Below are positions 15,195 through 56,305 of a stretch of 64,000 nucleotides of DNA, piece after piece; within the stretch, counting starts at the first letter, position 1; every line of letters starts with the position of its first letter. The stretch is from Eledone cirrhosa (Eukaryota), in the NCBI GenBank assembly GCA_964016885.1, contig OZ024740.1, forward strand, positions 121,644,001-121,708,000, read 5' to 3'. A program made the position numbers and the translations under genes. The notes under the pieces are model-generated. The model saw only the letters and a list, made by a program, of their open reading frames with translations, was not told where the DNA came from and made no database searches.

Positions 15195-15229
15195 GTGGTC
15201 TTTCCCATCTTTTCCACTCTATTTTAAAC

Positions 15230-18200
15230 ATGACCTCACTCAGAATAGGCAGCATACATGCGCGTGGCTTGGGGTCGTCATGGAAGCAGGGTCACCTGCT
15301 CAACGACCTCAGGTCACTAAACATAGATGTAGTGGCCATCAGCGAGACCAGAATCTCCGAAGCACGGGCCTTCGCACCGATCTTCGGCGGCTACGATGTG
15401 TACGCATCTCCCAGCCGTCCTGGATCGGGTGGAGGAGTTGCTGTGCTTTTTCGGAGAGTTTTGGATCTCGCCATACGGGCCATCTTCCTGGACCCAGAGG
15501 GTAAGCTGGTGGTGCTGGACGTGACCAGCGGAGACGGGCAAGCTTTCAGGCTAGTGGCCGTTTATGCCCCGACAGGAGCAGGGCGGCCTGATTTCTTCCG
15601 GCGTCTGGAGACCTTTCTTGGAACGTCCCCCTCTTTAGTGTTAGTGGGCGACTGGAACGGGATCTTAGATGCACGCTGGGACTATGTGGGATTAGCGGAT
15701 AGGGGTGGAGGGTGCAAGAGCCTCACCAACCTGCTCAGGCGTTTTGAACTGTCTGACAGGTACCGATTGGATTTCCCGAATGTGCCAATGTGGACTTGAA
15801 CAAACGGCATAGGGTCATCCAGATCATATCTAGATAGAGTATTTTGTAGGGAAATAGATAGGTCTAGCATAGGCTGTCCACAATTCAAGATAGTCAGCTA
15901 CACGGACCACAAATTCGTGACCTATGTGCTTGACTTAGATAGGCTTCATAGACGAGGACCCGGCTACTGGAAGCTAAACGCGTCCTTACCAGCGCGCAAG
16001 GCCTACAGAGACCGGATTAGCGAACTAGTTAAGTGGGCGTTGACGGGGGCCATCGTCAACAACAAGTGGTGGTTTGCTCTGAAAAGAGCGATTAGAATAG
16101 AATCGATTAGGTTTAGTAAGGCTTTAGCAATAGAGAAAAATAGAGCAGAGGGAGAACTAGTTAGAAAATTAGACGAGGCGCTTAACAAAGGCATTGCGAC
16201 CGACGTGCTTGCGGCGAAATTGGCCCTTGACCAATTCTTCAATGCAAAGCACGAAGTCTGCGTTGTCAGAGCTAGGGTGCGTGCTCTCAGACACGAGGGG
16301 ACGAAAGCCGTTCAATGGGCCCGAGTGGCGGAGGCGCGTCGTGGCAACAAAGCCACGATCCGGTCTTTGGTGGACCACGACGGGCGCATGCTACTCGATC
16401 CCGGGCAAATGTGTGAAGCTTTTCAGCGACACTTCGCTCAGCTGTTCGGGGGCAGCGGTGGGCCGGGTAGAGGGATGGACTTTAGTGTCTACCTCGACGG
16501 ACTGCCGCGGCTCTCGGCCACTGAGGCGAAGTGTTGCGAAAAGCCGATAACAGCCGCTGAAGTAAGGGAGGCAATGACTGGCTGCACAAGGGGTAAATCG
16601 CCTGGTTTGGATGGTCTGCCCTATGAACTTTACGTACAGATGCCAGACTTGTTCGGAGGCCTCTTGGCGGACGTCTACTGCAACTGGCAACAGAACGGGA
16701 GAATTCCCAGTTCTGTGAGCCGAGGAGCGGTGGCACTGCTGAGAAAGGATCCGAACAAGGGGGATAACATAGACAATTTCCGGCCCATAACTCTGCTAAA
16801 CACAGAGTCCAAGATTTTGGCCAAGGTGCTAGCAAAGAGGTTGGCGCTTGTCGTTGGTGGTCTGGTGGGAGAGGCGCAGACATGCGCCATTCGCGACAGA
16901 TCCATCCACGACAACCTCCACCTCATGCGATACATCATAGAGAGGGTAGCTAAGGAACCTGGCACGGGTGGGTCCTTGATCAATTTAGATCAGTCGAAAG
17001 CTTTCGATAGGGTCGACCATCGTTACCTAGCGGCCGTCCTGAGGGCGGCTGGCTTTGGGCCCGTCTTCAGAGGCTGGATCGCTGCCATGCACAGCGACAT
17101 GTGCTCTGTGGTGAGAGTGAACGGTCACCTGTCGGAACCGTTCAACATCATGCGCTCGGTCCGCCAAGGATGTCCCCTCTCGTCCCTCTTGTAAGTTTTG
17201 ACTCTCGAGCCATTACTGCACAAACTGGAGACGTTGAGGGGAGTCCCGCGCGAACTAGGATGCGGAAGATCCGTGTCAGCATATGCGGACGATGTCACCG
17301 TAGTGGTGTCGAACGCCAAACACATCGAGGCGATCGGCACTACACTAAGAGAATACGAAGTGGTGACAGGAGCAATGATCAACCAGGAAAAGTCAGTGGG
17401 CCTGCAGCTCGGCACCTGGAGAGGCAGGTCCATGCCGTCCAACAGCGTCGTCGGGCGCTGGACGGACGGACCGGTTAAATTGTTAGGGGTCTGGTTCGGT
17501 CCGGACCTCCAGACGGACAAAAACTGGGACGAGGTGACGAGCAGGGTGGCTTCTCTCACCCAGAAATGGGCGGAGAGGAAGCTATCCCTGAAAGGTCGAG
17601 CGGAGGTGGCTAACGCGTACATCGCGTCTGTCATCTGCTACCGCCTGACCGTCGTACCTTGTCCTAAGCCTCGCCTGACTGCGCTGGAGCGTTTGCTCTT
17701 TCGCCTTTTGTGGAAGGGACGTGCTCCGATGGTCAGGCGGTCCATCTGTTGTCAACACCCGCTACGTGGAGGGCTGGGCATGCCGTGGCTGATGATGCGC
17801 AGGCACGCGCTCAGGCTACGACATCTCCATCTCTTCCTCGACGGTGATCAGGTGTGGTCGCCGTTTGCTAGGCGCGTATTTCCCCAGCTCGTTTCCTTGG
17901 CGGAGCTGCAGTCCTGGGTCAAGCGAAGACCGAGAGGGAGCGCCTGGAGACTGGAATGTCTTCAGGCGCTCACAGCCCTCGACCAATCGGGCAATGTGAT
18001 CGGTGGAAACTCCACCTCGGCGTTCTATAGAGGATTAGTGGAGGGTAAGAGCGACGACGTACTTGGGGAAATTCTAGGCGTCGACGAAAATCAACTAGCC
18101 AATCTCTTCGGAAGAACTTTCGGGCCGGGTACTATGGACAACTTCCAGAAATCTCTGGCCTGGCAGTGCTACCGAGGAGCCTTGCCAGTTCGGGATAAAC

Positions 18201-18649
18201 TCTACAGGCATGGAGGTGCCGTCAGCCGGGCATGTCCGAGATGCGCGGAGGGCGACGAAACCGTCCTGCACGCACTCGTCCAGTGTCCGAAAATTGCTGA
18301 CTTGTGGGTTTATGTCGAACACCTGCTGTTGCGTTTAGGACGGATCCGGCTATCATCTGAGTCCATCGTGAGGATTGCCCCGCCCTCCTCCTTTAGCCGG
18401 GAAGGGCAGGCAGTTTTTATCTGTCTGGTGGCCATGGCGAAAGAGATAGTATGGTGGACACGTTTGAAAGGGCTGAAGACGAGCACTTACCTCTTCGGTG
18501 ATGCTCTGATTGACTTTTTCAAATTTCATTTGAAAAGGAAAATCAGAGTAGAGAAGGAAGTGCTCTCTTCCCAGCATTTTGTTGAAAGATGGGTGAGAGA
18601 AGCAAGAATGGCCCGAGTGAATGGGCCGACTCTGAGTATATATCTGTAA
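15230..18649 (+). pseudogene. Tx1 copy 2 ORF2 (APE-RT-CCHC), single frame with only two premature stops
   Basis: ORFs 15230-15799, 15917-17194 and 17198-18649 share one frame. Stops TGA 15797-15799 and TAA 17192-17194 correspond to TGG and TAC in copy 1. Motifs KSPGLDG, FRPITLLN, DQSKAFDRV, QGCPLS, YADD. Confidence 0.93.
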
Positions 18650-24664: not shown

Positions 24665-26062
<1,398 letters not shown>

Positions 26063-26072
26063 AACCAATAAG

Positions 26073-26165
26073 ACCCGACGGCTGAGCTCAAGCCGTTTCG
26101 ACGGCTAATTCTGGACTAAATGAAAATTTATTCTGGTATTTAAATAGCCGAGCTTCTCAAGGGGT
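26073..26165 (-). ncRNA. Type I hammerhead ribozyme, C3U/G8A core variant (inverted pLTR copy)
   Basis: Minus strand: CCC-UUGAGAA-G..CGGCUA[loop]UAGCCG.C-GAAA-CGGCU(UGAGCUC)AGCCG-UC^GGG. Predicted cut 26077/26076. Confidence 0.7.
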
Positions 26166-26175
26166 AATTCCATAT

Positions 26176-26842
26176 ATGGTCAAATTGACAACTCTCATAG
26201 GGAAAATATTCTTTAGGCTCATTGAAAAACACTTCCCACGACAACACCGCTACCACATCACATTTAACAAAAATACCATCAAATTCTCTTACAGCACTAC
26301 ACCAAACTTCGCACAACATCTTCTCCTCCAACAACAAAAAACTCAACCCCAATGGAAGAAATAAGCAAAATAGCAGTGGAGAGCCGACCAGGAGGTGCAA
26401 CTGTCCTGATAGATCCATTTTCCCCCTCGACAACAGATGCAGAGACCGTAATGTGATCTACCAGTGCAACGTGAGGACGGACACCTCCAACAAAGTTTAT
26501 ATAGGATTAACCGCATGTGACTTTAAGACCCGGCTATACCAACACATACATGCCTTCCGAAACCCGACCCGGCGTCACGCCACTACACTTTCGGGCCACA
26601 TATGGGACCTTAAGGACAACAACATCACCTATGATCTCACTTGGAGATTACTGTCCAGAGCCAACTCTTACACGGGAGGACGCCGTCCGTGCAATTTATG
26701 CTCGGAGGAAACTTTACAAATGTTGTTTTCGACGGACCAACTCCTAAACAAGATAGAAGAACTGGTTACTGCATGTAAACACAGATTGCGTAGGACCTAC
26801 CTCGCCCTCAAACCCCATAATGACCCGGGGGGGGGAGACTAG
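26176..26842 (+). pseudogene. PLE C-terminus: linker CxC motif plus GIY-YIG endonuclease
   Basis: IGKIFFRLIEKHFP (26176-26364), then RRCNC..PLDNRC..VIYQC..VYIGLT..FKTR..H..LSGHIWDLK..CNLC..LLN..E..CKH (26222-26842). Confidence 0.85.
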
Positions 26843-27576
26843 GGCTATAACACCCCACTTGCCGATTTTGTAATGGGTAACCCCTGCTTGCCAAGGGAGA
26901 CGTAAGATCTTCTTTTCTATTTCTTTTATCGCTTCCTCTATATTTCCTTCTTACCCCCATCCCTCCCTAGTCCTTCTACCCCAGTTCTTTTTCTTTGTCG
27001 GCGTCTTTTTCTCGCCCACCCGAGGCAGCCCCTGGGCCCCTTGTAGCCTCAGTGCCCCCCCCCCCTCCCCTAGTCTATGATAGATTTGGCGGACTCCGCT
27101 TTTTATAGCATTTGTGTTAGACCTCGGATACTTGCGCCTTTTTTCCGTGCCTTCTTTATTTCTTAGTGGCATCTTTGCTTTAATTTCTCGTTTATTCAGT
27201 ATTTCTGTCTTCTCTTTTCTTTCGGGCGGGGTGGATCCTGAATTAATTTTCCGTATTCCACTTTTACTTCGTACGACCTTTCTTGTAGCTTGTATGATAA
27301 CCTTTGTAACGTGGCGTTACACTTAGTATTAGCATTAGTATATTTTTTTCGGGACTCTCAATTATTATTTCGTACTAGTTTACTTTTCTGCACTGGATGG
27401 TTGCTGGCCTTGTGCCCGGGGTAGAAACCTTTATTAATTATTTCGTGGTAGTTTCTTTAGTAGTTGCCCCCCCCCCCCCCCTTTGTTGAACCGTCACCGT
27501 ATGATATACGTACTTATACCTCTTAAAAGGGTCCTTTCCTATTCCGTTCCACCTAGTCTATTTATTTATTATTTTT

Positions 27577-27623
<47 letters not shown>

Positions 27624-27964
27624 GCTTAGCAATAGCGAGAGACTTTGGTCGTAAGAATTGCTTATCTTTTTTCTTTACATTTATTCGCTTTTTATCACTC
27701 TCAATATTTTTATATATATTTTTACCCTTCATTGTTCTACTTACCGTTTCGACTTCCTCCCCCTCCCCCTCCCTAGTATCTTCTTTGACCTCACGCCCAG
27801 CTGTAGCCGGCACTACCAACGCATGATTGGGTCTACTCCACGCCCTCCCCTTTTTCTCCTACTGGCAGGTTTAGCTACCCTTTTCCCCACAAATTTGCCA
27901 TCACATAATTACTACTAACTTGTGACCAATCCTTGTGACAATCACTTTAGCCATATATGGAATT

Positions 27965-28058
27965 ACCGCTTGAGAAGCTCGGCTATTTAAATACCAGGAT
28001 AAATTTTCGTTTAGTCCAGAATTAGCCGTCGAAACGGCTTGAGCTCAGCCGTCGGGGT
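27965..28058 (+). ncRNA. Type I hammerhead ribozyme, C3U/G8A core variant (3' pLTR)
   Basis: ACCGC-TTGAGAA(27970-27976)-stem II-GAAA(28031-28034)-CGGCT..AGCCG-TC^GGGGT. Predicted cut after 28053; one mismatch in stem I. Confidence 0.7.
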
Positions 28059-28629
28059 CTTACTGGTTCCTATTACCCACTCTACTACCCAGATATATAC
28101 ACACAGATATAGAGATCTACACACATACACACATACACACACACACAAACACAACACACCCAGACATACAGGTATATATGTATAAATACACATATTTGTG
28201 AATGTACACATATGCCTCCCTGCATATGCCCCCTTATACAACCATATGTAAGAGCACTTAAAAACACAAGTGGGTATGTATGGACAAGGGGCAGTATAAT
28301 TGAAATAAAATAATATAAAAAACAGGTGAGGGAGAAAAGGGAGAAAAGAGGTGTATAAGTCGTGGTTGAGAGTAAGTGTTTGTGAAGAGATCTGGATAAG
28401 GGCATATAGTTAAAAACTGATCTGGGTAAAGGTAGAGAACAGGATGAAGGTAGTGGTTGTGTATGTGTTAAAGGTATGGTAGAAAATAGGGCAGGTGGTT
28501 ATAAGTCAAATGAAAAAAAATATAGATAAAGATGAGGGAGAAAAAATGTATATATTGGTAGAAAGTATGTGTTCATAAGGTGATGATGTTGGTAGTTAAT
28601 GGAAGGCGTAATATGTAAAGAGGAAGCTC

Positions 28630-32815: not shown

Positions 32816-33536
32816 GAACGTTAGCAGTTATTGAATTACTTTCAGCATTCTTAAACCATCAGATTTCAAACAATTGTTCTTGTCTATATAAAGTAACCAT
32901 TTCTATTTAGTAAGGTTTAACACTATGTATAACATGCACTTTTGTAAATATTTTTGAATATTTCTTTGATTGAGTTGGATCCTATGCACTGGTAGTCAGG
33001 TCAGTTGACATTTTACAGCAACTTGCTACTAATAGCTATTCATGCTTTAGGTTTAATATTTTGTTACATAGTATATTTCATTTTAACATATTTATCTTTT
33101 CCTTCTTTTGTGTCTATTCCTTTAATACGTGCCTTGTGATCTGCAGTTATAACAACACTTTACATCCAGTCGTTTTTCTATTCTAATTAATTTATAAATT
33201 AATCAACGAAAACAGCTTTGATTCGATAACCTTAGTAACATATTTGTATCCCTTTTTTGCCGTTTTATATATTTTGTCGGTCCAATCCAATTTGCAAATA
33301 TTACTATTTATTGAAAACAATCTCAAAAAGCTAGCAATCACTAATTATAATTAACTAATAATGAAAAACTAACATGCATCCTTCGTAAAAACTGCAGATC
33401 CCTGATAGTGAAAATAACAAAACAATTTATTCTATCAGATATTGCTTGTGATTCATGCAAGTATAATGTCCATATAACCCTTGCAGGAAACCATATAAGA
33501 CAAATATAATTAGCATACCATATTTACAAAATTAAC

Positions 33537-33743
<207 letters not shown>

Positions 33744-34040
33744 TTATAAAATGTGTAGCCGAATAACACCATTACATTATATTATATGTATATATAAATA
33801 TATATATAAATATATAAACAATTAAGTTAAAAATGTACATCCACATATGTATACTGAAATACTAGTATGCATATGAATACACATACGTATACATATGTAG
33901 ATGTACCAAGTCTTTCACTGGTTACTTTACTGTGAGTATCCAGTTATTCTGTATGTAAACACACAGACAAACCGGTTTTTAGAGTCATACTGGTTTTTGA
34001 GCAAACACCTTTCCTCTATTCTCCAGAAAGCCAGACAAGG

Positions 34041-34085
34041 AATATTGAACTAGTTTCGTTGTTGTTACAACTCATCAGCAATATT
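34041..34085 (-). ncRNA. Minimal type I hammerhead ribozyme (canonical core)
   Basis: Exact reverse complement of 34921-34965. Confidence 0.88.
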
Positions 34086-34920
34086 TACCTATCTACCGGC
34101 CTTTCTGGAGAATTGTAAAAGCACATATTGTTATATGCTTTTTCTATGAAAATTAGTAGTGGGCAGACTAATTTGCATAGAGTGTGAGTACGTACCGGTT
34201 CAACGGAGACGATAAAAACAAATAACGAAACGAAATTAAATTTCGTTTCGTTTGTAACTCACTTTTGTATGACTGACGCTTAAACAATTAAGTTAAAAAT
34301 GTACATCCATATATGTATACTGAAATACTAGTATGCATATGAATACACACACGTATACATATGTAGATGTACCAAGTCTTTCACTGGTTACTTTACTGTG
34401 AGTATCCAGCTATTCTGTATGCAAACACGAATACATACAATACATAAAAATGTACATCCATATATGTATACTGAAATACTAGTATGCATATGAATACACA
34501 CACGTATACATATGTAGATGTACCAAGTCTTTCACTGGTTACTTTACTGTGAGTATCCAGCTATTCTGTATGCAAACACGAATACATACAGAATAGCTGG
34601 ATACTCACAGTAAAGTAACCAGTGAAAGACTTGGTACATCTACATATGTATACGTGTGTGTATTAATATGCATACTAGTATTTCAGTATACATATGTGGA
34701 TGTACATTTTTAACTTAATCGTTTAAGCGTCAGTCATACAAAAGTGAGTTACAAACGAAACGAAATTTAATTTCGTTTCGTTATTTGTTTTTATCGTCTC
34801 CGTTGAACCGGTACGTACTCACACTCTATGCAAATTAGTCTGCCCACTATTAATTTTCATAGAAAAAGCATATAACGATATGTGCTTTTACGATTCTCCA
34901 GAAAGGCCGGTAGATAGGTA

Positions 34921-34965
34921 AATATTGCTGATGAGTTGTAACAACAACGAAACTAGTTCAATATT
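34921..34965 (+). ncRNA. Minimal type I hammerhead ribozyme (canonical core)
   Basis: AATATTG-CTGATGA-GTTGT(AACA)ACAAC-GAAA-CTAG-TT^CAATATT: 7-bp stem I, 5-bp stem II, palindromic ACTAGT stem III. GUU cleavage at 34958/34959. Confidence 0.9.
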
Positions 34966-35386
34966 CCTTGTCTGGCTTTCTGGAGAATAGAGGAAAGGTG
35001 TTTCCTCAAAAACCAGTATGACTCTAAAAACCGGTTTGTCTTTGTGTTTACATACAGAATAGCTGGATACTCACAGTAAAGTAACCAGTGAAAGACTTGG
35101 TACATCTACATATGTATACGTGTGTGTATTCATATGCATACTAGTATTTCAGTATACATATATGGATGTACATTTTTAACTTAATTGTTTAAGCGTCAGT
35201 CATACAAAAGTGAGTTACAAACGAAACGAAATTTAATTTCGTTTCGTTATTTGTTTTTATCGTCTCCGTTGAACCGGTACGTACTCACACTCTATGCAAA
35301 TTAGTCTGCCCACTACTAATTTTCATAGAAAAAGCAAATAACGATATGTGCTTTTACGATTCTCCAGAAAGGCCGGTAGATAGGTA

Positions 35387-35431
35387 AATATTGCTGATGA
35401 GTTGTAACAACAGCGAAACTAGTTCAATATT
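35387..35431 (+). ncRNA. Minimal type I hammerhead ribozyme (canonical core)
   Basis: Same as 34921-34965 except an A>G change in stem II giving a U-G wobble. Cut at 35424/35425. Confidence 0.9.
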
Positions 35432-35653
35432 CCTTGTCTGGCTTTCTGGAGAATAGAGGAAAGGTGTTTCCTCAAAAACCAGTATGACTCTAAAAACCGG
35501 TTTGTCTGTGTGTTTACATACAGAATAGCTGGATACTCACAGTAAAGTAACCAGTGAAAGACTTGGTACATCTACATATGTATACGTGTGTGTATTCATA
35601 TGCATACTAGTATTTCAGTATACATATATGGATGTACATTTTTAACTTAATTG

Positions 35654-35717
<64 letters not shown>

Positions 35718-36895
35718 CATGAGTGTGTGTATGTGTATATGTGCGTGAGTCCCGGCTTCAATCGGGTGTATCCAAAGTAAATAAGGTACTCAATCCATTT
35801 GTAGAGTGTATATAACAAATTTAATATAGAAATGGCTTCCGTAGCACTAAAACTGTTTTCATTCGGATAAGTGAAATACGTTCTCATGAGATTTGTAGGC
35901 CGTCCTTACAATTGAGAAATTCATCTTGAATGTTTTAGGCTAACAACTCCTGTTTACACGTGACTAGTGATAGTTTTCACAAGAGAAAGTGGGTGAAATT
36001 ACCTAACATTGGATGGAGAAGTTTAACGTTTAGTAAAACTATAGAGAAAAGAAGAGATGGGTTCAATGAATAAGCCGGTATGATATATATCCTATTGTAT
36101 ATAAATACATAGGTAAATACAGAGAGAGAGGGTGATGAGGAGAAGCAACATGCCCTAGGGATATGACTGACGTGTTGTTCAGTGTCATTTTGCCCCCTAA
36201 CCTGTAGCGTTCTACGCTGCATATGATTTTAATGATAGCATGTTCTGAGTTTGAAAATATCTCAATTTGAGTATTATTTGAATTTTTTAAAGAGTCAGTA
36301 ACAGGTTCCAGGTTCCAATTGTCCAGATATGCTCCCTTTCGGAGGCTCTTTGGGTCTCGAGATACTCAACATGTGTGCATCTATCTCAAGCCTCCCAGGG
36401 CGAGTCGCAGAGACATTGGCAGATTTTACAACAAGAAATAATGACTACAATTTATTAATTGAACAAGCCCCTCTACCTAAGGCCTGTACGCATCCCTTGT
36501 AAACCAACGTGAACGACGATCCAGTATGTTTTCTGTGTTTCTTTATTTCACCATATTTCAGTTGCAGGCTCGGTAATCTCATTTGCACCAGTCATGAATC
36601 TGGTACATTTTCAAACCCCCGAAGACTAGTCCTTTTCAGAGCCGAACTTTACACGCGTCGTCATAGCTAATTTACTGGATTGTGGAAGTTATCTTGGGAG
36701 CTACTGGTGTTACCTATTGCTCCATCTCCCATAGTATTTTACAGTTGTTTGTCCATGGCTGCTTATTTGTCTCGTGGCTTTTTCAATATTAGCCACATCT
36801 GACCTGTTATCTAACAGAGCAGCTTTCAGTTTGGCGCCAAGTGCTGCATGGCTAGAATGAAAATCAGTGGTTTGAAAGGTGAGTCACACGGAGTA

Positions 36896-40544: not shown

Positions 40545-41565
40545 GTGAGGTTTTTTTTACAAAATGAAAAATAACCGAGGTGTCCTACACGAGTGAAAGT
40601 ATAAGGAAAAAAAGATGAAATCGAAAATGCAGCTGCAGTCTTATTTTTTAAAAAAATATATGTATTTATTTGGTTCCTTTGCCGGTGTCGCAGTTCTTCT
40701 GCTTTTCAAAAGTAGAATTGAGATGGCCGGTCTGTGGTTTTTCTTATAACTGGTTGGTCTCTGAATGAAGGTCTCTGAATTATAGTCTCTGAATTATATG
40801 GAAAAAGTGGCTCGAAATGCCAGGTTTTTCGAGAAGTAATTTGATTGGTTGGTCAATAATTATAATAAATTTCGCGCCAGTTCGCGTTACAAAGTTCTTC
40901 AAAAAAGTAGTGGGGGGTGTCACAGGTTTTTTTTTTTCATATATGCGTGTTTGAATTTCTTTTTACTTAAAAGAAGGGGGCTCACGGATGCTTTTTTTAA
41001 TAAACGTAATTTGAATGGTTATAAATGAAATTATGGCTGTCACGTGAACAAGATTTCATTAAATTTTCGCACCCATATTTGGAAATCTATTCTGTAGCTG
41101 TTTAGAGAATTTTATGACAAGCAAAAGATAATGGTCAAGAGAAATTGGATGGGAAAATTGTTCTGGTTCAGTGAATATGGTTAGTTCGCTGGGGCGTCAG
41201 AATTCAGATTTTCTATTGAATAAAGAAAGTAAAGATATGTATGTTTATTTATACGTGTGTGTGCGTGTGTGTGTTGTGTGTGTGTGTGTGTGTATATTGG
41301 AAGATGATTCTATTAGTAAACATGAGGGAGGGAGATGTGTGCGTGTGTATATGGGTGTTATGTGTGTGTGGGAGGGGGGAGTATGTTAAGATGGAGAGAA
41401 TATATATATTTTGTGTGTGTGTATATATGTGTGTAGGAAAGTGATTTTATTAGTATAAATGGGGGAGGGAGTTGTGTGTGGGGGGTGGGGGTTGTTATGT
41501 GTGTGTATGGGTGTTATGTGTGTGTGAGTATGTTTAGCATGTTAAGATGAAGAGCATATATATAT

Positions 41566-41603
<38 letters not shown>

Positions 41604-44600
41604 TGTGTGTGTGTGTGTGTGCGTGTGTAGGAAAATGATTCCTTTAGTAGGTATATTTTTGAATGAACATATTTTCCTTACTTATTCGTATTTGTTCTGT
41701 TGTATTGTCAGTGCAAACTTATGTTAAGGTTTATTTAGTTCGGGTTTTTATTTTCTAAAGTAGAAGGTGTTATGTGTGTGTGTATGTGTCTGTTTGGATG
41801 GTTAGCATGTCATGGTGTTGACATAATGTATATTAAACCATATTTAATGCTGGTCTATATTTTTGAATAAACATATTTTCCTTAATTATTCGTATTTGTT
41901 CTGTTGTATTGTTAGTGCAAAGGTAAACTGGGAGGACTTGGAATGTGGGTGTCTTATTACTTGCGCATATGTCTAGATATGCGCTTAGTGGTATCTGTCT
42001 CGTGGTTGGATCTCGTAATTGTTGGCGATGAACTGTCATTCTGTTTCTGAGTGTGAGTTTAGTTTGTCCTATATAATATTCATTGCATCCTTTACATTTA
42101 ATTGCATGAATTAGATTTTTTGATGAGCAAGTGAAGTGATTTTTTACAGTAAAATGTTGTCCTGATTTAAATGTATACGTGTTGCCTTCAATGAGGTGAG
42201 TGCAGGTTCCAGAATTAGTGCGACCACATTTTTTGACACTTGGTTGTGGGTTTGTGGTAGGTTATTTGGCATTGGTGAGTAATGTTTGCAGTGATGTCGG
42301 TTATCTTTTGCTTTTGATTATATTGTGTGTTTCAAGGGCTTCTTTCATTCTTGGGTTTCGTTTTAGTAGTGGGATGTTCTTGTGAATAGTGTTGTAAGCT
42401 TCCGCATTTCTTGGGTTGTGTGTTGAGATATATGATATAATATTGGAGGTACCGTGAATTGGTTTCTGTTTTCGTAATTAATCAATGCCTATTGTTTTAT
42501 CCCTTTCTATTCCATTATTTATTAGTAATGGTGGGTACTCTCTTTCGAGTAGAATTTCTTTTAATTCTTGAAGTCTTTTATCTCGCGTTTTATAATTGGA
42601 GACAATTGTGCAAATTCTTCTTGCTAGGTTAAAAAGGAATGTTCGTCTTCGTGTGCTTTGGATGGTTGGAGCTGAATAGCAGGTATTGTTTGGAATCTGT
42701 TGGTTTGTAGTGTATGTCAGTTTCAATATTTGTGTCTGTTTTTAAGATTAAGATGTCCAGAAATGGGAGTTGATCTTGGCTGTATTCCATTGTGAATTGG
42801 ATGTGGTTATTGATGCCGTGTATTAAGTTTTTGAAATCCTTCAGTTGGTCGAGTGAGCAAGACCAAAGAATGAGACAATCATCCAAGTAGCGTTTCTAAT
42901 TCTCTAATAAATATTTGTGGAAGTTCAATCCGTATTTTGATTTGGACTGTTCATATATCTGGACTTCTAAGTATGTCATGACTAATTTGGCATAAGTTGG
43001 AGCGGCTTTTGTACCCATGTAACTACTGCCATCGAAATCAAAAAAGTTGTTCTGTAAGATGAATTTTAATCCCTCGGTGATGAAGCTTTTTTCTATTCTG
43101 CCATGTATCTCATTGGGATATTTCTCTAGCCAGAATCCTATTGCTTCTAGTCTGAATTGGTGTGAGATCGTTGTGTAGAGATTCACTACATCGAAAGACA
43201 GAATAATAGTGTCGTTGTTGACATGTTTGGGGAGGTGGTTTAAGAGGTCCAGATCGTCTCTTACAAGGCTTGGTATGTGTTTGAGAATTGGTTTTAGTAG
43301 TATGTCTATAAAGTTGCTCAGTCTGTGTGTTTCACATTGTGGGCTCACTACAATTGGTCTTAATTTAAGCTATGTGGGGTATTGTGTGTTCACGCAGGCT
43401 GAGGTGGATTCTTTACAGGTATCGTTAATTATTTTACACATGTGGATCTTCGGAAGTCCGTAAAGGTTGCTGGTTTTGTATTCAAAATGTGTTAAATAAT
43501 CGCGTTCCTTTTTTGTTAGGTCTTCCTGGTATCGATAAATCAGAGTGTTTAATCTGGTCATTATTTTTGATTGCTGGTAGTTTTTTACTATTTCATAGTA
43601 ATTAGTATTTTGTAAGAGAGAGAACATAGAATTTTTATATTTTTCAGCCTCCATAATGACAACAGCACCTCCCTTGTCCGCTTCCTTAATTATAATGTCC
43701 GTATTGTTTTTTAGTTCATGGATAATCTCCCATTTCCTTCGACTCGTGTTGGGTTTGGGTTTAGGTTGCGGTAGTTCATGGTATGGGAAAGTAGCTATGT
43801 GGTCAAAACATTTGTCCAGAACTCTGTTTCTACTTTTGTTTGGTTGTAGCTGCTTTTATTCCGTACAATTGATTCGTCGTTATTCTCCTTATCAAAGAAT
43901 TCCTCTGTGAGACGTAATTTTCTACAGAAGAGTGAGATATCGTCATTTATCTCTTTGGGGTTAGAGTATTGTGGTGTTGGTGTGATTTTCAGTCCTTTGG
44001 AGATAACATTTACTTGTTGGGCTGAGAGGTTTGTATATGAAAGGTTGATTATTTTCGATTTTTCAAAATCGGTTTGTGCCACCGGGTGTCGTGGGTCCTG
44101 TAGCCTTGGTCTGAAAAAATGATTTTTCTGGAATGTTTTTTTTCAATGGTATTATTATATCTAATGGTATTTCCCCTGTTGTTGTGTGGTCTTGTATAGA
44201 AGTTTCGGGGGGTATTGAGGTTTGGTTTGTTGATAGTCCGGGTTGTAGATTTTGTTCCTTTGTGTGGGTTGGGATCAACGGTTTTGGAACAGGTTCTGTG
44301 TGGGCAGGGGTCTACGGTTTTGGAATAGGTTTTTTGTGGGTTGTATCTGCAGATCGAGTCCTGTCTTGTGTTCGGGGATCTTCGGTTTTTGTTAGTAGGG
44401 TTATAGTTTTGTCTATGGTTTCTGGGATTATCGTTATAGTTTTCTGGGGGTATGTTGGACGTTTTGTTACTTTTTTTATTATTTGTTGTGCATGTTTTGT
44501 TACTTTTTTTGTTATTTGTTGTGCATGTGGTGTGTGAGTTTTAGTTTGTTTTAAAAATGGGTTACCTGTATGTTGTTCATAATTGAAGTCCATTTCGTAG

Positions 44601-45040
44601 TTGTTGAACCAGGTGGCGTTTTTTCCCCATCGCTGGAGGGATGTTAGTTCTTCATCCTCACAGTTTTCTTTCCAAAGTTTTAAGGTATTTTCGTAGAGTA
44701 GGCCTTCAGAGTGCTTTGAGATTTCTGTGTCCATCTGTTGGTCGAGTGACTTGAATTTTTCTTCGTGGAGTTGGCTCTTAATCGCAACAGTTCTATTTCT
44801 ATTTTAAATTTTTCTAACGCCAACTTTTCCCTAAGTCTTTGTTGGTTTTCTGGATCATTTGGGATGGGTTTTATTTGGAGTTTTTTGGGAAGGATTATTG
44901 GGGTAAAGTTTAGCCAATTTTCATATATGATTGCCTTGGCATTATTTTTTAGGAGATTCCAAAGGGCAAATTTGCGGGCTGTGAGCTTTTGAGTCCATAT
45001 TTTGATTAGGGTGTTTTTCACTGAGTGGACATGACGTAGA
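40540..45040 (-). mobile_element. Penelope-like element (Neptune-like RT + GIY-YIG), long degraded copy
   Basis: IINLS..KGLKITPTP, EADKGGAVVIM, YGLPKIH, LSFDVVNLYT, MGTKAAPTYA, RYLDD, LPFLD, Cys-rich linker, then FTCSSKNLIHAIKCKGCNEYYIGQT, ending PALNMV at 41833. 3' region extends to (TA)n at ~40540. Confidence 0.88.
40677..40712 (-). ncRNA. Degenerate hammerhead in the Neptune-like 3' region
   Basis: Minus strand: CUU-UUGAAAA-GCAG(AAGAA)CUGC-GAcA-CCGG-cA^AAG. Two core substitutions (A14C, U16.1C). Confidence 0.5.
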
Positions 45041-45049
45041 TTAGGTTCT

Positions 45050-48040
45050 AAAGGTAACAAACGTAAAAAAAGTCCAACAAAAGTAACAAAAAGTCTTACA
45101 TACCCACAGCAAACTATAACGATAATCAAATACAAACCTCTCAGGCCAACAAGTAAGAATTCTCTCCAAAGGACTGAAATTCACACCAACACAACAATAC
45201 TCTAACCCTAATGAGATAAATGAGGATATCTCACACTTCTGAAGAAAATTACGTCTCACAGAGGAATTCTTTGATAAGGAGAATAACGACGAATCAATTG
45301 TACGGAATAAAAGCAGCTACAACCAAACAAAAGGTAGAAACAGATTTCTGGACACATTTTGTGAACACATAGCTACTTTCCCATACCATGAACTACCGCA
45401 ACCTAAACCCAAACCCAACACGAGTCGAAGAGAATGGGAGATTCTCCATGAACTAAAAAATAATACGGACATTAAAATTAAGGAAGCGGACAAGGGAAGC
45501 ACTGTTGTCATTATGGAGGCTGAAAAATATAAAAATTCTATGTTCTCTCTCTTACAAAATACTAATTACTATGAAAGAGTAAAAAACTACCAGCAATCAA
45601 AAACAATGATCAGATTAAACACACTGATTTATCGATACCAGGAAGACCTAACTAAAAAGGAACGTGATTATTTAACACACTTTGAATACAAAACCAGCAG
45701 CTTTTGCGCACTTCCGAAGATCCACAAGTGTAAAATAATTAACGATGCCTGTAAAGAATCCACCTCAGCCTGCGTGAACACACAATACCACACATACCTT
45801 AAATTAGGATCAATTATAGCGGGCCCACAATCTGAAACACACAGACTGAGCAACTTTATAGACATACTACTAAAACCAATTCTTCCACAAATATTTATCA
45901 GAGAATTGGAAACGCTACTTGGATGATTGTCTCATTCTTTGTACCCACACACTTGACGAATTGAAGGATTTCAAAAACGTAATAAACGGCGTCATAAACC
46001 ACATCCAATTCACAATGGAATACAGCGAAGATCAACTCCCATTTCTGGACATCTTAATCCTAAAAAATACACAAATATTGAAACTGAGATACACTACAAA
46101 CCAACAGATTCCAAACAATACCTGCTATTCACCTCCAACCATCCAAATCACACGAAGTCGAACATTCCTTTTAACCTAGCAAGAAGAATTTGCACAATTG
46201 TCTCCAATTATGAAACGCGAAATAAAAGACTTTAAGAATTAAAGGAAATTCTACTCGAAAGAGATTATCCACCATTACTAATAAATAATGGAATAGAAAG
46301 GGCTAAGGCAATAGGCATTGATGAATTACAAAAACAGAAACAAATTCAATGTACGTCCGATATTCTATCATATATCTCAACACACAACCCAAGAAATGCG
46401 GAAACTTACAACACTATTCACAAGAACATCGCACTACTAAAACAAAACCCAATAATGAAAAAAGCCCTCGAAACACACAAAATAATCAAAAGCAAAAGAC
46501 AACCGAAATCACTGAAAACATTACTCACCAATGCCAAATTACCTACCACAAACCCACAACCAAGTGTCAAATAATGTGGTCGCTCTAATTGTGGAACCTG
46601 CACTCACCTCATTGAAGGCAACACGTATACATTTAAATCAGGACAAATTTTTTCTGTAAAAAATCACTTCACTTGCTCATCAAAAAGTCTACTTTATGCA
46701 ATTAAATGTAAAGGATGCAATGAAGATTATATAGGACAAACTAAACTCGCACTCAGAAACAGAATGAGAGTTCATCGCCAACAATTACCAGATCCAACCA
46801 CGAGACAGATACCACTAAGCGCATATCTAGACATATGCGCAAGTAATAAGACACCCAAATTCCAAGTCTTCCCATTTTATCTTTGCGCTAACAATACAAC
46901 AGAACAAATACGAATAAATAGGGAAAATATGTTTATTCAAAAATATAGACCAGCATTAAATATGGTTTAATATACATTATGTCAACACCATAACATGCTA
47001 ACCATCCAAACAGACACATACACACACCCATAACACCTTCTTTTTTAGAAAATAAAAACCCGAACTAAATAAACCTTAACGTACGTTTGCAGTGACTATA
47101 CAACATAACAAATACGAATAAGGAAGGAAAATATGTTCATTTCAAAATATTCCTACTAAAGGAATCATTTTCCTACACACACACTCACACACACACAGTA
47201 TATATATATGCTCTTCATCTTAACATTCTAACCATACTCCCACACACATAACACCCATACACACACATAACAACCCCCACCCCATACACAACTCCCTCCC
47301 CCATTTCTACTAATAGAATCACTTTCCTACACACATATATACACACAACATACATATATTCTCTCCATCTTAACATACCCCCCCCACACACACATAACAC
47401 CCATACACACACACACAACTCCCTCCCTCATTTCTACTAATAGAATCATCTTCCAATACACACACGCACACATGCACACACACACAACACACACACACAT
47501 ACACACACACACACACATAAACAAAGATATCTTTACTTTCTTTATTCAATAGAAAATCTGAATTCTGACACCCCAGCGAACTAACCATATTCACTGAAGT
47601 AGAACAATTCCCTCATCCAATTTGTCTTGACCATTATCTTTTGCTTGTCATAAAATTCTCTAAAAAGGCTACAGAATAGATTTCCCAATCATGGCGCGAA
47701 AATTTAATGAAAACTTGTTCACGTGACAGCCATAATTTAATTTATAAAAAATCAAATTACGTTTATTAAAAAAAAAGCCTTCGTGAGCCCCCTTTTTTTT
47801 AAGTAAAAAGAAATTCAAACACTCATATAGGAAAAAACAACATGTGACACCCCCCACTACTTGTTTGAAGAACTTTGTAACGCGAAGTGGCGCGAAATTT
47901 ATTATAATTATTGACATACCAATCAAATTAATTCTCGAAAAACCTGGCATTTCGAGCCACTTTTTCCATATAAAACAAGTAACATTCAGAGACCAACCAA
48001 CTGTGAGAAAAACCACAGACCCTCCATCTCAATTCTACTT
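45050..48040 (+). mobile_element. Inverted second copy of the Neptune-like element with two internal deletions
   Basis: ORFs 45513-45926, 45919-46179 and 46764-46970 mirror 43370-43654, 42629-42886 and 41833-42039. RT core deleted near 45882. 3' region mirrors 40711-41830. Confidence 0.88.
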
Positions 48041-49888: not shown

Positions 49889-52800
49889 TACTGCTGGCTG
49901 CCACTTCCACATTATAGAATTCCTACTACTAACAAAGAGGAAGGCATCAAAATATATAGATAGACTCAAAAGAAAAAAGAAAAAACAAACAACAAAAGCA
50001 GCACAGCAACAACAGCAAAAAACGAGAAAAACAAACAGAGAAAAACAAAAACAAAAAAAGAAACCCCAAAAACGTAAAGAAAGTAAGAATGAAGAGAGAA
50101 GCAGGCGGACGGACAGAGAAGAGGGGGGAAAAAGTAAAACTTAAAAAACAAAAACTAAGTCAGACATTCGAATACTACATTACAATGAAACTTATGCTTA
50201 TTCATTTTTGGGGCCCTTTCTGCCCGTGTGTTTGTTTGTTTATGTGTGTCCGTATACAGCGTGGTGATAATGCCACACAAGGGCCAAGTGGGATGGCGGA
50301 TCCACAGATGGCTATGTAAAGATACATTCGCCAATCCTCGATAAGAGTGTTTAAATATCGAACATAAACAGTTCGAATAACGGTGAAATGGAGACTAGAA
50401 CGTCATGTGACAGACTCTCACCCAACAGGTGCCCCCTGGCTCAGCAGCAGGAACCTGACTGTCAACCAAATACTGCTGATGTTGGAGGAAGAAGAAGAAG
50501 GAAAGGGGCCAGAACCAACTGGACGAAAGAATTGAATAGAACTGTTATGCAATGCTACCTGAAAAGTAACCCCAAGGAGAGGGGCTACAGGAGACGGATG
50601 CATAACATCTGGAACGAGATTGGTTTATTTAAATTAGATGAACAAAAATTGGCCGGGCAGGCTCGGGTAATAAGAACTAATGGGTGGATAAGCGAGCTGG
50701 AACTGGAGGAACTGAACAGAGAGAATGGCTTGGAGATGGCGGGTGTAGTATGCCAGACAAGCGAGCCGGCGGGAAATGAAGGTGAGGAGGTCCTGAGAAC
50801 GGAGGAACCACCCGAAGCAGACAATGATCTGAATACTGAGATACATAATACCTGGAACAGAGATACGGCCACTGAGGAGATGAATGCTGACGGGCTAGGA
50901 CAAGATTCGGTTGACATCCTAAATTTAGTGGTAGATGAGTTGAACAATGATAGTGGGAGACCTATGAACCTAAGATTTGTAGACAGGAAAAAGTTAGAAG
51001 AAACAACAGCTAAGGTAAACAAAGTCATCCCATACCTTGAGGCGAGGAGTCTTCACCAGTGCAACAATATCCTCAAAGCAACAGCAAATACGGTGAGGAA
51101 ACTACTTGGTATAAAAGCGAGAGGAAACAACAGACAAGAAAGAGCAGAGCCGTGGTGGAAGAAGCGACTGAGTGGGCAAATCGGGGAAATGAGAAATGAC
51201 ATAGGAAAGCTTGAGTCACTACTGAATGGGACACTAAAAAACATAGGCACTAAAAATAGACTGGAAATAAAATACAAAACTAGGAGTAAAAAGCTAAATA
51301 TTATCATAGAGGAATTGAAGCAACGCATTGTAGCAAAGAGTGCCAAAATCAGGCGATACGAGAACAGAGTCAGTCAGTATAAACAGAACCGCATGTTCGA
51401 CAACAACCAGAAGATGCTGTTTGGACAGCTTGAGGGGAACGAAAGAGGCAACGACTTGATCTCTGGGGCGGAACAAGCTAAAACATTCTGGAGAGGAATA
51501 TGGGAGCAGGATGTTAGACACAATGCCCAGGCAGGGTGGATTGAGACAGTACAGAGGGAGATCGGTGAGCAGGCACAGCAACAGACTGATTTGAGTATTA
51601 CAGTTGAAACTCTTAAGGGGCAAGCCAAAAAACTAACCAACTGGAAATCACCAGGCCCAGATGGTGTGCAGGGGTATTGGATTAAACATTTAACATCCCT
51701 CCACCCGAAGCTGACGGCCATGTTCAATGACTGCTTGGTGTCGGGTGAGGTGCCAGAGTAGTTGACAAAAGGTACCACAGTTCTGATAATGAAAGAGCGA
51801 ATCAAGGGTAATGATGTTACCAACTATAGACCTATCACATGTCTGCCCGTAATGAGGAATCTGTTGACGAGCATTGTGTCTGAGGAAATCTACCATCACC
51901 TCCACACAAACAACTTGTTGCCGGACGAACAGAAAGGATGCCGAAAGAAGTCACGTGGTACAAAGGACCAGTTGCTTATTGATAAGATGGTAATGGGGAA
52001 TTGCAGGAGGAGACACACTGATCTTGCCATGGGATGGATAGACTACAGAAAGGCATTTGACATGGTGCCTCATTACTGGATCACCAAAAGCCTGGAGATC
52101 TTCAGGGTGGCAGATAACATCAGACAGTTGCTGGGCAGGAGTATGGGGTCCTGGGAGACAGAGTTGACATCAACTGGAGTATCCTTGGGAAGCGTGAAGA
52201 TCAAGAGAGGTATCTTCCAGGGAGATAGCCTGTCCCCTCTGTTGTTTGTCCTTGCCCTGATGCCCTTGACCATTATGCTGCGAAAAGTGAGAGCAGGATA
52301 CAAGTTGGGAAGGGGAGAGCTTACCATCAATCACCTCCTCTTCATGGACGATCTTAAGCTCTTCGGGAAAAGTGAGAAGGAGTTGGATGTGCTTGTTGAC
52401 ACTGTCCGTATTTTCAGCAGTGATATATGTATGCAGTTTGGTATTGGTAAATGTGGAGTCATTGTGATGAGGAGGGGTAGGTTTAGCAGAAGTAACGGGA
52501 TCCAGATACCAACAGGTGAGATGATAAAGGAAATTGACTCTGAGGAAGGATACAAGTATTTGGGCGTTCTGGAGGCTGATGGCATAAAGAACAAAAAAAT
52601 GAAGGAATTGTTAAGAACTGAATACATTCGGAGAGTAAGGAGCGTATTGAAGTCACATCTGAACAGCAGAAATGCCATAAGCGCAGTAAATTCCCGAGCT
52701 GTGTCTATTACTAGGTACAGTGCGGGAATTCTGAGATGGAATGTTGCTGAACAAAAAGAAATGGATAGGAAGACTAGGAAGCTATTGACTATCTACAACA

Positions 52801-53836
52801 TGTTCCACAAGAGGAGTGATGTCGATAGACTCTACCTAAGGAGATCTGAGGGTGGAAGAGGTCTTATCAGCATAGAGGACTGTGTTCAGATGGAGAAAAA
52901 CAACCTATACAAATACGTGACCTATAGTAAGGAGCCAATGCTCAGAGCTGTACTGAAGGAGGGGACAGTAGGCCAGGGGATATCCAAGGAGGAAATAACA
53001 TCAAGGAGGAAGAGCAGCCTTAAGGGAAAATCCCTTCATAGTACCTTCTTTGAGAAAACTGAATTTAGAGATCCACAGACATGGAACTGGTTGAGAAGAG
53101 GAGACCTCAAAAAGGCTACAGAAGGAATGCTAATGGCTGCGCAGGAGCAGGCCCTCAAAACGAAGTGGTTGAAGCACCATATCTACAAGGAGGAGGCTAG
53201 CCCACTGTGCAGGATCTGTGGAGAGAGAGAGGAGACTGTGGCTCACATTGTGTCCGACCCACTATAATGGCTGGAGACACGATGTGATGGGCAGGGTGAT
53301 CCACTGGCACCTGTGCAAAGTAAACAATCTACCACATTCTGAGAAATGGTATGAGCATAGGCCAGAGGCGGTGATGGAGAACAGTCAGGTGAAGGTGCTG
53401 TGGGATTTTAGGATACAGACGGACAAAAAACTGGAACACAATAGACCTGACCTGGTGGTTGTGGACAAAGAAAAAAGATCGTGCCTGATTGTGGATGTGG
53501 CCTGCCCGTTCGACACGAGAGTGCAGGAGAAGGAGAGGGAGAAAATTAACCGATACCAGGACCTAAAGTGGGAGGTGAAAAGGATTTGGAACTGCCATGA
53601 AGTCAAAGTGATCCCGATTGTCATAGGCGCACTGGGGACTATCTCCAAAGGTTTCCAGGGATGGTTAAAGAAAATCGGCCCCTTCACGCTTTTTGGAACG
53701 CTTCAAAAGGCATGCTTGCTTGGAACGGCAAGAACCCTCCGATACGTCCTGAATATCTGAGGCTGCAGGTAGTGGCTTGATATTCAATCCAACGGACTTT
53801 CCAGTTAACCAACATCAATGACTGAGATTCAAGGAA
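49888..53836 (+). mobile_element. R4/Dong family B, complete ORF region with partial 5' UTR
   Basis: Between (AAT)n tracts. 3' UTR 53761-53836 matches 991-1066 and 18971-19043. Confidence 0.92.
50388..53760 (+). pseudogene. Dong-B polyprotein (RT, CCHC, PD-(D/E)xK RLE), one nonsense codon and one frameshifting deletion
   Basis: 50388-51761 and 51762-53267 are in frame across TAG (TGG in the other copy). A small deletion near 53255 shifts to 53218-53760. Motifs DYRKAFD, QGDSLSP, FMDDLK, RHD, RPDL, DVACP. Confidence 0.92.
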
Positions 53837-53869: not shown

Positions 53870-56305
53870 GGGAAGAAGACACATGGTGGATAGAAGGTCG
53901 AGAAATCGCTCCCGTAAGTTTTGATTTTTTAACATATTTAAATCAATTGTGAAATAACAATTCCTAGTACAAATGTTGCATAAAACAATCAGCTTGAGCC
54001 CCCTAAAATTCGGATCCACAATATATTGTTATATCGCTCAAATATTCAATTTTGTATTATACATTTTATATTCAAAAAGAAAATGGTTTTAAATGGAAGG
54101 AAACCCACTCTGTCTACACTATATAGAACAGCCAAATAATAACAGCAATTTCACCAATATCAGAAACTAGATACACCAGCTACTCCATCACCCCTCTGTG
54201 TACACTAAACACAACAGCCTGATAACGGCAATTTCACAACCACCACCACCAATCTCAGCATAATAATAATAATTACTATTACTATCGCCTCAAGTTTTAG
54301 TGTTAACAAAATGTTTAATTCCAATATTATGGGTAAATGTCAATACATACACGCGACTAACGATAATTTCACTAAAGATAATTTCACCACCAATACCACC
54401 ACCACTACCACGATGAAAACTCTGGTCAAGTCGACTCAAAATTCTACTCCAACTTCAACACCATCACTACAGTAATACGACCACATCACCACCACCGCTG
54501 CCTCACTATCGCTACCGCCGCTATTCTCTCCCATTACCTCCTGCTAGTTGCTGCTAGCACAGCAACGCCACCGCCGCCGCTGCCTCAATATCACTACCGC
54601 CGCTATTCTCTCCCGCTACCCCCTGCTACATTGTAGAATTCTCACTAAAAGAGGAAAACATCGAAATATATAAATAGACTGAATTGATGACCCGATCAAA
54701 ATAAAAATGAAAAAAAAAAACAATAATCAAAATCAAGTTTTAGTTTTAACAAAATGTTTAATTCCAATAGTATGTGTAAATGTCAACGCATATACGCGAC
54801 TAACGATAATTTCACTAAAGATAATTTCACCACCAATTCCACCACCACTACCTCGATGAAAACTCTGGTCAAGTCGACTCAAATTTCTACTCCAACTTCA
54901 ACACCATCACTACAATAATACGACCACATCACCACCACCGCTGCCTCACTATCGCTACCGCCGCTATTCTCTCCCACTACCTCCTGCTAGTTGCTGCTAG
55001 CACAGCACCGCCACCGCCGCCGCTGCCTCAATATCACTACCGCCGCTATTCTCTCCCGCTACCCCCTGCTACATTGTAGAATTCCCACTAAAATAGGAAA
55101 ACATCAAAATATATAAATAGCCTGAATTGATGACCCGGTCAAAATAAAAAAAAACAACAAAAATCAAAATCAAAGCAGCACAGCAACAACGAAAAACGTA
55201 AAGAAAATGAAAATGAAGAGAAAAACAAACGGACGGACAGAGAAGACAGAGGAAAAACTAAGTCAGACATTCAAACACTACATTACAATGAAACTTATGC
55301 TTATTCATTTTTGGGGTTTCTTCTGCCTATTTGTTTGTTTGTTTGTTTGGGTTCGTCTACAGCGTGATAATGCCACACAAAATGCACGTGGAGTGACGAA
55401 ACCACCAGAGTCAAGTAATTCACCGGTGGTTATGTAACCATACATTCGCCAATCCTCGATAAGAGTGTTTAAATGTCGAACGTAAACAGTTCGAATAACG
55501 GTGAAATGGAGACTAGAATGTCATGTGACAGACTCTCACCCAACAGGTGCTCCCTGGCTCAGCAGCAGGGACCTGGCTGTCAACCAAATACTGCTGGTGT
55601 CGGAGGAAGAAGAAGAAGGAAAGGGACCAGAACCAACTGGACGAAAGAATTGAATAGAACTGAAGAGTAACCCCAAGGAGAAAGGCTATAGGAAAAGGAT
55701 GCATAACATCTGGAACGAGATTGGTCCATTTAAATTAGATGACCAAAAACTGGCCGGGCAGGCTCGGGTAATAAGAACTAATGGGTGGATAAGCGAGCTG
55801 GAACTGGAGGAACTGGGCAGAGAGATTAGCTTGGAGATGGAGGGTGGAGTATGCCAGGCAAACGAGCCAGTGGGAAATGAAGGTGAAGAGGTCGAGAGAA
55901 CGGAGGAACCACCCGAAACAGATAATGATCTGAATGCTGAGATAAATAATACCTGGAACAGAGATACGGCCACTGAGGAGATGAATAATGACGGGCTAGG
56001 ACAAGATTTGATTGATATCCTAAACTTAGTGGTAGATGAATTGAACAATGATAGTGGGAGACCTATGAACCTAAGATTTGTAGACAGGAAAAAGTTAAAA
56101 GAAACAACAGCTAAGGTAAACAAAGTCATCCCATACCTTGAGGCGAGGAGCCTTCACCAGTGCAACAATATCCTCAAAGCAACAGCAAATGCGGCGAGGA
56201 AATTACTTGGCATAAAAGCGAGAGGAAACAACAAACAAGAAAGACCAGAACCTTGGTGGAAGAAACGACTGAATGGTCAAATCAGGGAAATGAGAAATGA
56301 CATAA
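53870..56305 (+). mobile_element. R4/Dong family B 5' part (5' UTR with 443-bp tandem duplication, ORF N-terminus), 3'-truncated
   Basis: Starts after (AAT)n. Duplication 54291-54733 / 54734-55170. ORFs 55473-55670 and 55699-56334 match 21152-22429. Confidence 0.88.

Follow-up and report, generated by a model that had tools for sequence, protein, structure and literature searches.

A dispersed non-coding hammerhead repeat in Eledone cirrhosa with the insertion signature of Penelope elements

The locus and its hammerheads

The window analyzed here is a stretch of 64,000 nt of the Eledone cirrhosa genome (contig OZ024740.1, 121,644,001-121,708,000), and coordinates are positions within it unless a monomer position is given. 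Between 33815 and 35657 lies an insertion built from a 466-bp unit, in which a minus arm (33815-34438; monomer approximately 76-466, then 1-233) precedes a plus arm (34583-35657; monomer 91-466, 1-466, and 1-233), with the 3′ ends outward and with remnants of a (TA)n target on the left (33778-33816) and on the right (35654-35678). Both outer ends are at monomer position 233 and adjoin the (TA)n, and it is this that sets the extent of the element; the first-pass annotation had listed it as 33815..35654, of which the left end stands and the right end is now 35657. The inverted arms are 97% complementary (33815-34439 versus 34567-35191), a perfect 151-bp tandem duplication spans their junction (34294-34590), and TRF reports a period of 466, with 2.3 copies and 98% matches, over 34583-35654. 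The same interval is non-coding, with a longest ATG frame of 50 aa and a GC content of 35%. Units at this locus diverge by 1.9%, which places it among the most heterogeneous of 66 loci. The approximately 205-bp target segment is present as a tandem duplicate (33536-33742 and 33741-35764, with 94% and 76% matches), the empty copy preceding the copy that bears the insertion; this may be an older duplication, or it may be two haplotypes assembled in tandem.

A structure scan of both strands finds 3 type I hammerheads in the entire 64 kb, all of them in this insertion. Copy 1 (34041-34085, minus strand) has its core at 34078 and H17 at 34048; copy 2 (34921-34965, plus strand) has its core at 34928 and a predicted cut after 34958; and copy 3 (35387-35431, plus strand) has its core at 35394 and a predicted cut after 35424. 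Each has a 7-bp stem I, CUGAUGA, a 5-bp stem II, GAAA, and a GUU triplet, and stem III is 2 bp with the palindrome ACUAGU. The sole difference among the 3 is an A>G in stem II of copy 3, which turns a U-A pair into U-G, so that the earlier claim of a pairing-preserving change held, as did those of a 466-bp monomer with three complete canonical hammerheads (by structure scan and TRF) and of inverted plus tandem arms inside (TA)n. The term “minimal” hammerhead did not survive: the Penelope min-HHR has a stem II of 7-8 bp and a stem I of 4-5 bp (PMC4209133), as against 5 and 7 bp here, and the motif is instead the canonical metazoan type I, which according to the same source folds as a dimer. From the motif, a full 466-nt monomer (34959-35424, plus strand) is predicted to be released between the two cuts. 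At the gathering score, Rfam returns nothing at this locus; below the cut-off of 52 bits, Hammerhead_HH9 matches the 3 hammerhead sites at 37-39 bits (E 1e-7 to 3e-7), and the Rfam microRNA matches, under their own cut-offs, were rejected as fold-back artefacts.

The 466-nt monomer folds with z = -9.5 against 100 shuffles, and in the predicted circular fold the closed end holds stem I and the ribozyme. Within the plus arm, site A (35186-35191; monomer 228-233) is the first of the two fixed 3′ ends of the family described below, and a 69-nt tail with a 13-bp hairpin at 35220-35248 runs from there to site B (tail 35192-35260; monomer 302). Beyond it, a further hairpin (35292-35328) contains an octamer-like motif (35294-35301), is kept in all three of the related families considered here, and is a recurrent A>G hot spot in some other copies. 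The motif is a putative promoter element; a snRNA-type promoter has been reported, at second hand, for newt satellite 2 (PMC2220036).

Other repeats share the window. At 15035-18649 and 50355-53267 lie several copies of LINE-type elements, in both orientations, which match endonuclease, RT, and zf-RVT domains. A 443-bp tandem duplication with 94% matches lies at 54290-55174 and, by the structure scan, is without a hammerhead. Two Penelope elements flank the insertion at some distance, where the labels Hydra-like and Neptune-like are a motif reading against section 11 of PMC8557442 and not a phylogeny: a Hydra-like relic with inverted ends (26060-28090), from a family with 784-aa open frames, arranged in tandems of 3,531 bp, and with 61,396 candidate matches, and a broken Neptune-like element with two GIY-YIG pieces in inverted arms (40600-48040), whose family has 775-aa open frames plus a separate upstream frame of approximately 410 aa.

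A young family with two fixed ends

The focal locus is one member of a young, dispersed family of short, low-GC, non-coding units in multi-copy arrays without LTR structure. Exact matches to a 35-nt ribozyme core number 5,102 in the 3.0-Gb genome (reversed control 0), and those to one end junction number 2,056 (control 0), which implies at least approximately 2,000 insertions, with the close relative RZ-1b counted in. We fetched 146 loci, of which 38 were best matches (the focal locus and one chance find included), 28 came from the core list in its given order, 60 from the site B list, and 20 from those site A entries for which no B partner was listed. Arrays range from less than 1 unit to approximately 23 units. 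Mean divergence between loci is only 3.5% and some arrays are internally identical, and hence activity is recent. Insertion targets, considered under a TSD criterion of >4 bp, are microsatellites. Arms pass straight from one monomer into the next, and when four Penelope protein pieces were used as queries, none of the 146 loci (66 + 80) had an ORF in the pLTR position; locus L230 adjoins a truncated Penelope frame at the 5′ junction of its arm. This is the result that bears on whether the monomer is simply the pLTR of an ORF-bearing element, and together with the tail signature and the (TA)n target it supports the earlier proposal of a non-autonomous, Penelope-mobilized unit. The accompanying word “replicon” was an overstatement, since it implies RNA-to-RNA replication.

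The ends of these insertions follow a simple rule. For the classification, 145 loci gave 147 clusters (two loci gave two each, and three ran off the fetched stretch); L217, with no piece of 60 nt, falls outside it. Fixed ends are at site A (monomer 219-234) or site B (296-305), 69 nt apart, and in all 92 of the 92 simple two-arm clusters a minus arm is followed by a plus arm, so that the 3′ ends face outward. Where both arms are at least 60 nt, 82 clusters have one end of each kind (A/B), 3 are A/A, and none is B/B. One of the A/A cases, L285, is two abutting insertions, leaving A/B in 82 of 84 with 2 A/A (binomial p 2e-22); since L236 and L237 are one duplicated locus, the independent A/B loci number 81, and with short arms included the A/B count is 95. 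Loci ascertained through site B are unable to show A/A, and the B/B count among them is 0. Of the further clusters, 39 were classed as one-armed, several with a short arm under the 60-nt cut-off, and 7 have some other end. A separate count of site A ends was inflated by a variable gap and served for positions only. In contigs of run X1, loose ends sit exactly at 35191 and 35260 and run into (TA)n; since the raw data show both sites as well, assembly did not create the ends. The focal A/A locus is thus one of two exceptions, and may reflect a two-template event or a later rearrangement. The observation that both of its ends are at the same nucleotide is correct for this locus (monomer 233), but as a match to a Penelope pattern it fails: only 2 of 84 long-armed family loci have it, and the ends differ in all 8 two-armed loci of an autonomous Penelope family.

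That autonomous family (L147-L166; 18 loci fetched, 8 of them two-armed, each with two different end sites) is a second Hydra-like one, with 821-aa frames, its own hammerhead with a long stem II, and a tail of approximately 85 nt, and it obeys the one-of-each rule. It is one of three families with intact Penelope frames in this genome (775, 784, and 821 aa), and the autonomous families here share the two-arm layout. Two fixed ends, a tail at one end, an inverted arm, and a (TA)n target are together the signature of Penelope insertion. The simplest reading of the A/B rule is that each DNA strand would be primed at one site of one RNA. At L048:2723-2790, a (TA)n run separates two facing ends that both lie at the ribozyme cut site itself, which looks as though priming had started from the 3′ end of a cut RNA.

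Among the candidates considered, no partner element for the 466-nt unit emerged. The monomer has no nucleotide match to the 775-, 784-, or 821-aa families or to a fourth, Neptune-like family, and junctions with Penelope sequence were found at L045, L230, L293, L248, and L184. These 5 junctions involve three different families, and 3 of the 5 break the end rule; we rejected them as proof of a partner, and in our reading they are one-armed insertions that lie next to the ends of older elements. A tail motif common to the unit and one Hydra-like family (p 0.023) was also dropped, because in a wider test it gave p 0.08; other family pairs gave p 0.1-0.97.

Two relatives of the family are without ORFs as well. 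RZ-1b (L167-L191) has a unit of 467 nt, 88% identical to the 466-nt family, with a GUC triplet. RZ-2 (L091:3190-3725 and L192-L216; 2,475 candidates) is an ORF-less hammerhead family of 442-444 nt with a CUGACGA core, a GUA triplet, a 57-nt tail, and a predicted fold similar to that of the 466-nt family, to which it is 63% identical over 313 columns. As we read the ends, RZ-1b follows the end rule (10 A/B, 0 same-site), and RZ-2 mostly follows it (14 A/B, 1 clear B/B). The hammerhead pattern was found 0 times in metagenome contigs and 0 times in viral contigs.

Constraint on the ribozyme can be read both within the family and across the three. Variants shared by at least 3 loci fall at 0 of 16 core positions and at 109 of 450 positions elsewhere (p 0.03), while locus-unique variants are found at 9 of the 16. 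The stem II pair 444/455 switches from U-A to A-U in approximately 40 loci. When 16 natural monomers drawn from the three families are aligned, both partners have changed in 24 of the 94 predicted pairs, some of them in stems I and II, although most of these changes come from three related RZ-2 rows and so represent few independent events. Core conservation and covariation support selection on the fold; activity is a separate matter.

Template, mechanism, and rival explanations

Both arms of a locus come from one source: opposite arms differ by 0.30%, compared with 3.5% between different loci, and 20 variants private to a locus are fixed in the two arms alike. The question is what form that source took. 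The arms contain 470 ribozyme cut sites, and 5′ ends show no significant excess at the cut (6 of 243, with 3.7 expected; p 0.16). Since cut sites are read through and 5′ ends do not cluster there, the template was not a cut linear monomer, which leaves a circle or an uncut multimer. Given Penelope mobilization, we consider a circular template likely.

Some of the substitutions look like RNA editing. On a variant tree of 129 loci (8 were excluded because they aligned into TA runs, were duplicates, or had a compound structure, and others for low cover), terminal-branch changes common to all covering units (n = 60; ribozyme strand) comprise 24 A>G, 6 T>C, 9 G>A, and 4 C>T. Changes confined to a single unit (n = 413) comprise 38 A>G and 43 T>C (Fisher versus locus-fixed, 0.002). 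The 24 locus-fixed A>G events are spread over 22 loci; a U or A precedes 21 of the 24 (p 0.02), which is the ADAR preference reported across metazoans (PMC9989829), and 19 of the 24 are at paired positions. A345G recurs, locus-fixed, on at least seven backgrounds; one locus has three linked A>G changes in every one of its 20 units, and another has five in all 4 of its units. An edit is made in one unit of one molecule, and its presence in every unit of an array therefore points to repeated copying of one unit. The bias fits ADAR editing of one unit that would have been copied many times. The fixed-versus-single test is post hoc, devised after the clusters had been noticed. By halves, the tree test gives 13:2 and 11:4 (second set alone, p 0.07); an earlier and narrower test on private variants, at first 7:0, did not replicate when new loci were counted (5:3) and stands at 8:3 overall (p 0.19); and the replication sets are small (RZ-1b 3:1, RZ-2 0:0). 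Tolerance of G-U pairs in stems could also produce an excess of A>G over T>C, but it predicts C>T above G>A, contrary to the 4 and 9 observed.

Our preferred reading, to which we give a probability of roughly 0.6, is that the focal locus is an insertion of a non-coding hammerhead repeat, likely mobilized in trans by Penelope and probably from a circular monomer RNA. It starts from the dispersal, the fixed ends, the two-arm layout, the (TA)n target, the conserved ribozyme fold, and the lack of an ORF, all of them plain in the genome. Arrays would be transcribed on the ribozyme strand; adjacent hammerheads would pair via the ACUAGU palindrome and excise 466-nt monomers, which a host ligase would circularize; and ADAR would edit some of the A's in stems. 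A Penelope protein would then cut both strands of a (TA)n run, synthesis would be primed by one DNA end at site A and by the other at site B of a single RNA, both ends would be extended round the circle for a variable length, and the two cDNAs would be joined at their far ends. Arrays would be further enlarged by duplication at the DNA level, a step that is seen directly for some long arms. The fuller version of this cycle is more tentative, and we place it a little short of even odds: a Penelope protein dimer would act on one ADAR-edited circle by two-site priming, one site for each cut DNA strand, and would roll round it in both chromosomal directions, the edits would be written into every unit of the new array, and three ORF-less families (466, 467, and 442-444 nt) would share with their helpers a fold and not sequence.

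The most serious competitor, which we regard as unlikely although still with appreciable weight, keeps Penelope mobilization and has the repeat copied from uncut linear multimers, with the hammerhead a slow or protein-dependent passenger and uniform arrays arising from uniform donors plus DNA duplication. Read-through of cut sites fits multimers as well as it does circles, and hammerhead mutants were without effect on insertion in vitro (PMC11167929). Moreover, block duplications are present at the DNA level: blocks of repeated single mutations lie within one arm at L249, L275, and L107/108, so duplication after insertion can homogenize arrays. Some arrays also have periods of two, three, or four units (L041-L042 three then four, L102 two, L207 two), which may reflect multimer circles or DNA duplication. 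But independent editing of the units in a multimer should raise single-unit A>G, and no such excess is seen (38 versus 43); the core is also conserved, and the stems covary, across families that are 63-88% identical. Contigs of X4 and X6 that close on themselves at 495-496 nt were dropped as evidence for circles, since a tandem array gives the same result; the 466-nt unit is present at low depth in runs X4, X5, and X6, which are labelled as three other organisms.

That the unit is the pLTR of an autonomous Penelope, with the ORF-less loci as 5′-truncated copies later amplified as satellites, we consider improbable. The tail, the two-arm layout, and the target do match Penelope elements, 24 of 57 Xenopus retrozyme families matched known elements, mostly Penelope ends (bioRxiv 10.64898/2026.07.22.740005), and the loci examined are approximately 146 among at least 2,000. 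Against this stand the lack of any ORF in pLTR position among those 146, arms that run directly from monomer to monomer, and the lack of a nucleotide match to the four autonomous families. A pLTR origin of the 466-nt unit in a more distant ancestor may nevertheless be envisaged. Mobilization by a LINE, or amplification at the DNA level alone, is very improbable; the end rule already goes most of the way to refuting it. The window is rich in LINE-type RT frames, but the unit itself lacks a poly(A) or simple-repeat tail, and two fixed internal ends with outward-facing arms are not LINE features. Dispersal over many chromosomes with identical ends is, likewise, not satellite-like.

Known systems and what the family adds

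By its sequence, the 466-nt family is a metazoan non-LTR retrozyme, and that class is already published (PMC7229834). The retrozymes of coral, mussel, and axolotl described there are likewise non-coding and low in GC, made of short tandem units that each contain a single type I hammerhead; their copies run to thousands, and their predicted circle is self-paired. The mussel family has approximately 5,000 ribozymes in 350-390-bp units. At 466 nt, the present unit is slightly above the 150-450 bp of that paper and within the 51-972 bp of bioRxiv 10.64898/2026.07.22.740005. Cleavage and circles were demonstrated in the former, whereas the present family is known from genomic sequence. Cloned mussel circles mismatched the genome, editing being named there as one explanation, and Penelope elements were proposed as candidate mobilizer; the available text describes no fixed ends, tail, or inverted arms of the kind reported here. 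Newt satellite 2 and schistosome Sm-alpha also have tandem units with dimer-type hammerheads (PMC4209133).

Li, Clavereau, and Pollet (2026; bioRxiv 10.64898/2026.07.22.740005) conclude that animal retrozymes are non-autonomous Penelope derivatives, and 1 of 9 predicted dimers was cleaved in vitro in that work. Their evidence, in the text available, is co-occurrence and pLTR homology, mainly in vertebrates; ours comes from the anatomy of the insertions, and none of the pLTRs sampled here is homologous to the unit. On the enzyme side, Frangieh (2024; PMC11167929) reports a Penelope protein, predicted to be a dimer, that cuts and extends both strands, with two internal start sites bounding the tail and with hammerhead cleavage not required for insertion. 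A tail at one end of Penelope elements is described by Craig (2021; PMC8557442) and Arkhipova (2013; PMC3846280). From these three papers, two start sites, a one-end tail, an inverted 5′-truncated arm, and an AT-rich or (TA)n target are common to Penelope-like elements and the 466-nt family; the differences are that the latter is without an ORF and has a tail of 69 nt instead of 30-40. In the passages available, the tail is “often” or “optionally” one-ended, while the one-of-each rule is counted here, at 82 of 84. Chlamys elements such as MRC1 (PMC8557442) are also ORF-less, head-to-tail, and Penelope-mobilized, but their similarity is to the 3′ ends of autonomous families, and canonical hammerheads are reported there to be missing from most Chlamys elements. 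In the open-access literature, we found no description of the 466-nt family (Dfam, Repbase, or paper supplements may catalogue it), no retrozyme with a Penelope tail signature, no count of the one-of-each rule, and no editing fixed in retrozyme arrays.

The return of animal retrozymes to genomes has so far been a hypothesis, with a circular template and an unknown reverse transcriptase, and direct support for it from genomes has been scarce. Here, approximately 2,000 young insertions with readable ends coexist with intact Penelope frames, so that both template and enzyme can be tested in vitro in the assay already published for Penelope, and the one-of-each rule constrains how a Penelope enzyme engages the two DNA strands. 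The class is known, and the genomic evidence on its mechanism is here unusually good. Should the A>G signal hold, the template would be the ribozyme-sense strand (an antisense template is considered in PMC3846280), and RNA editing would become heritable sequence.
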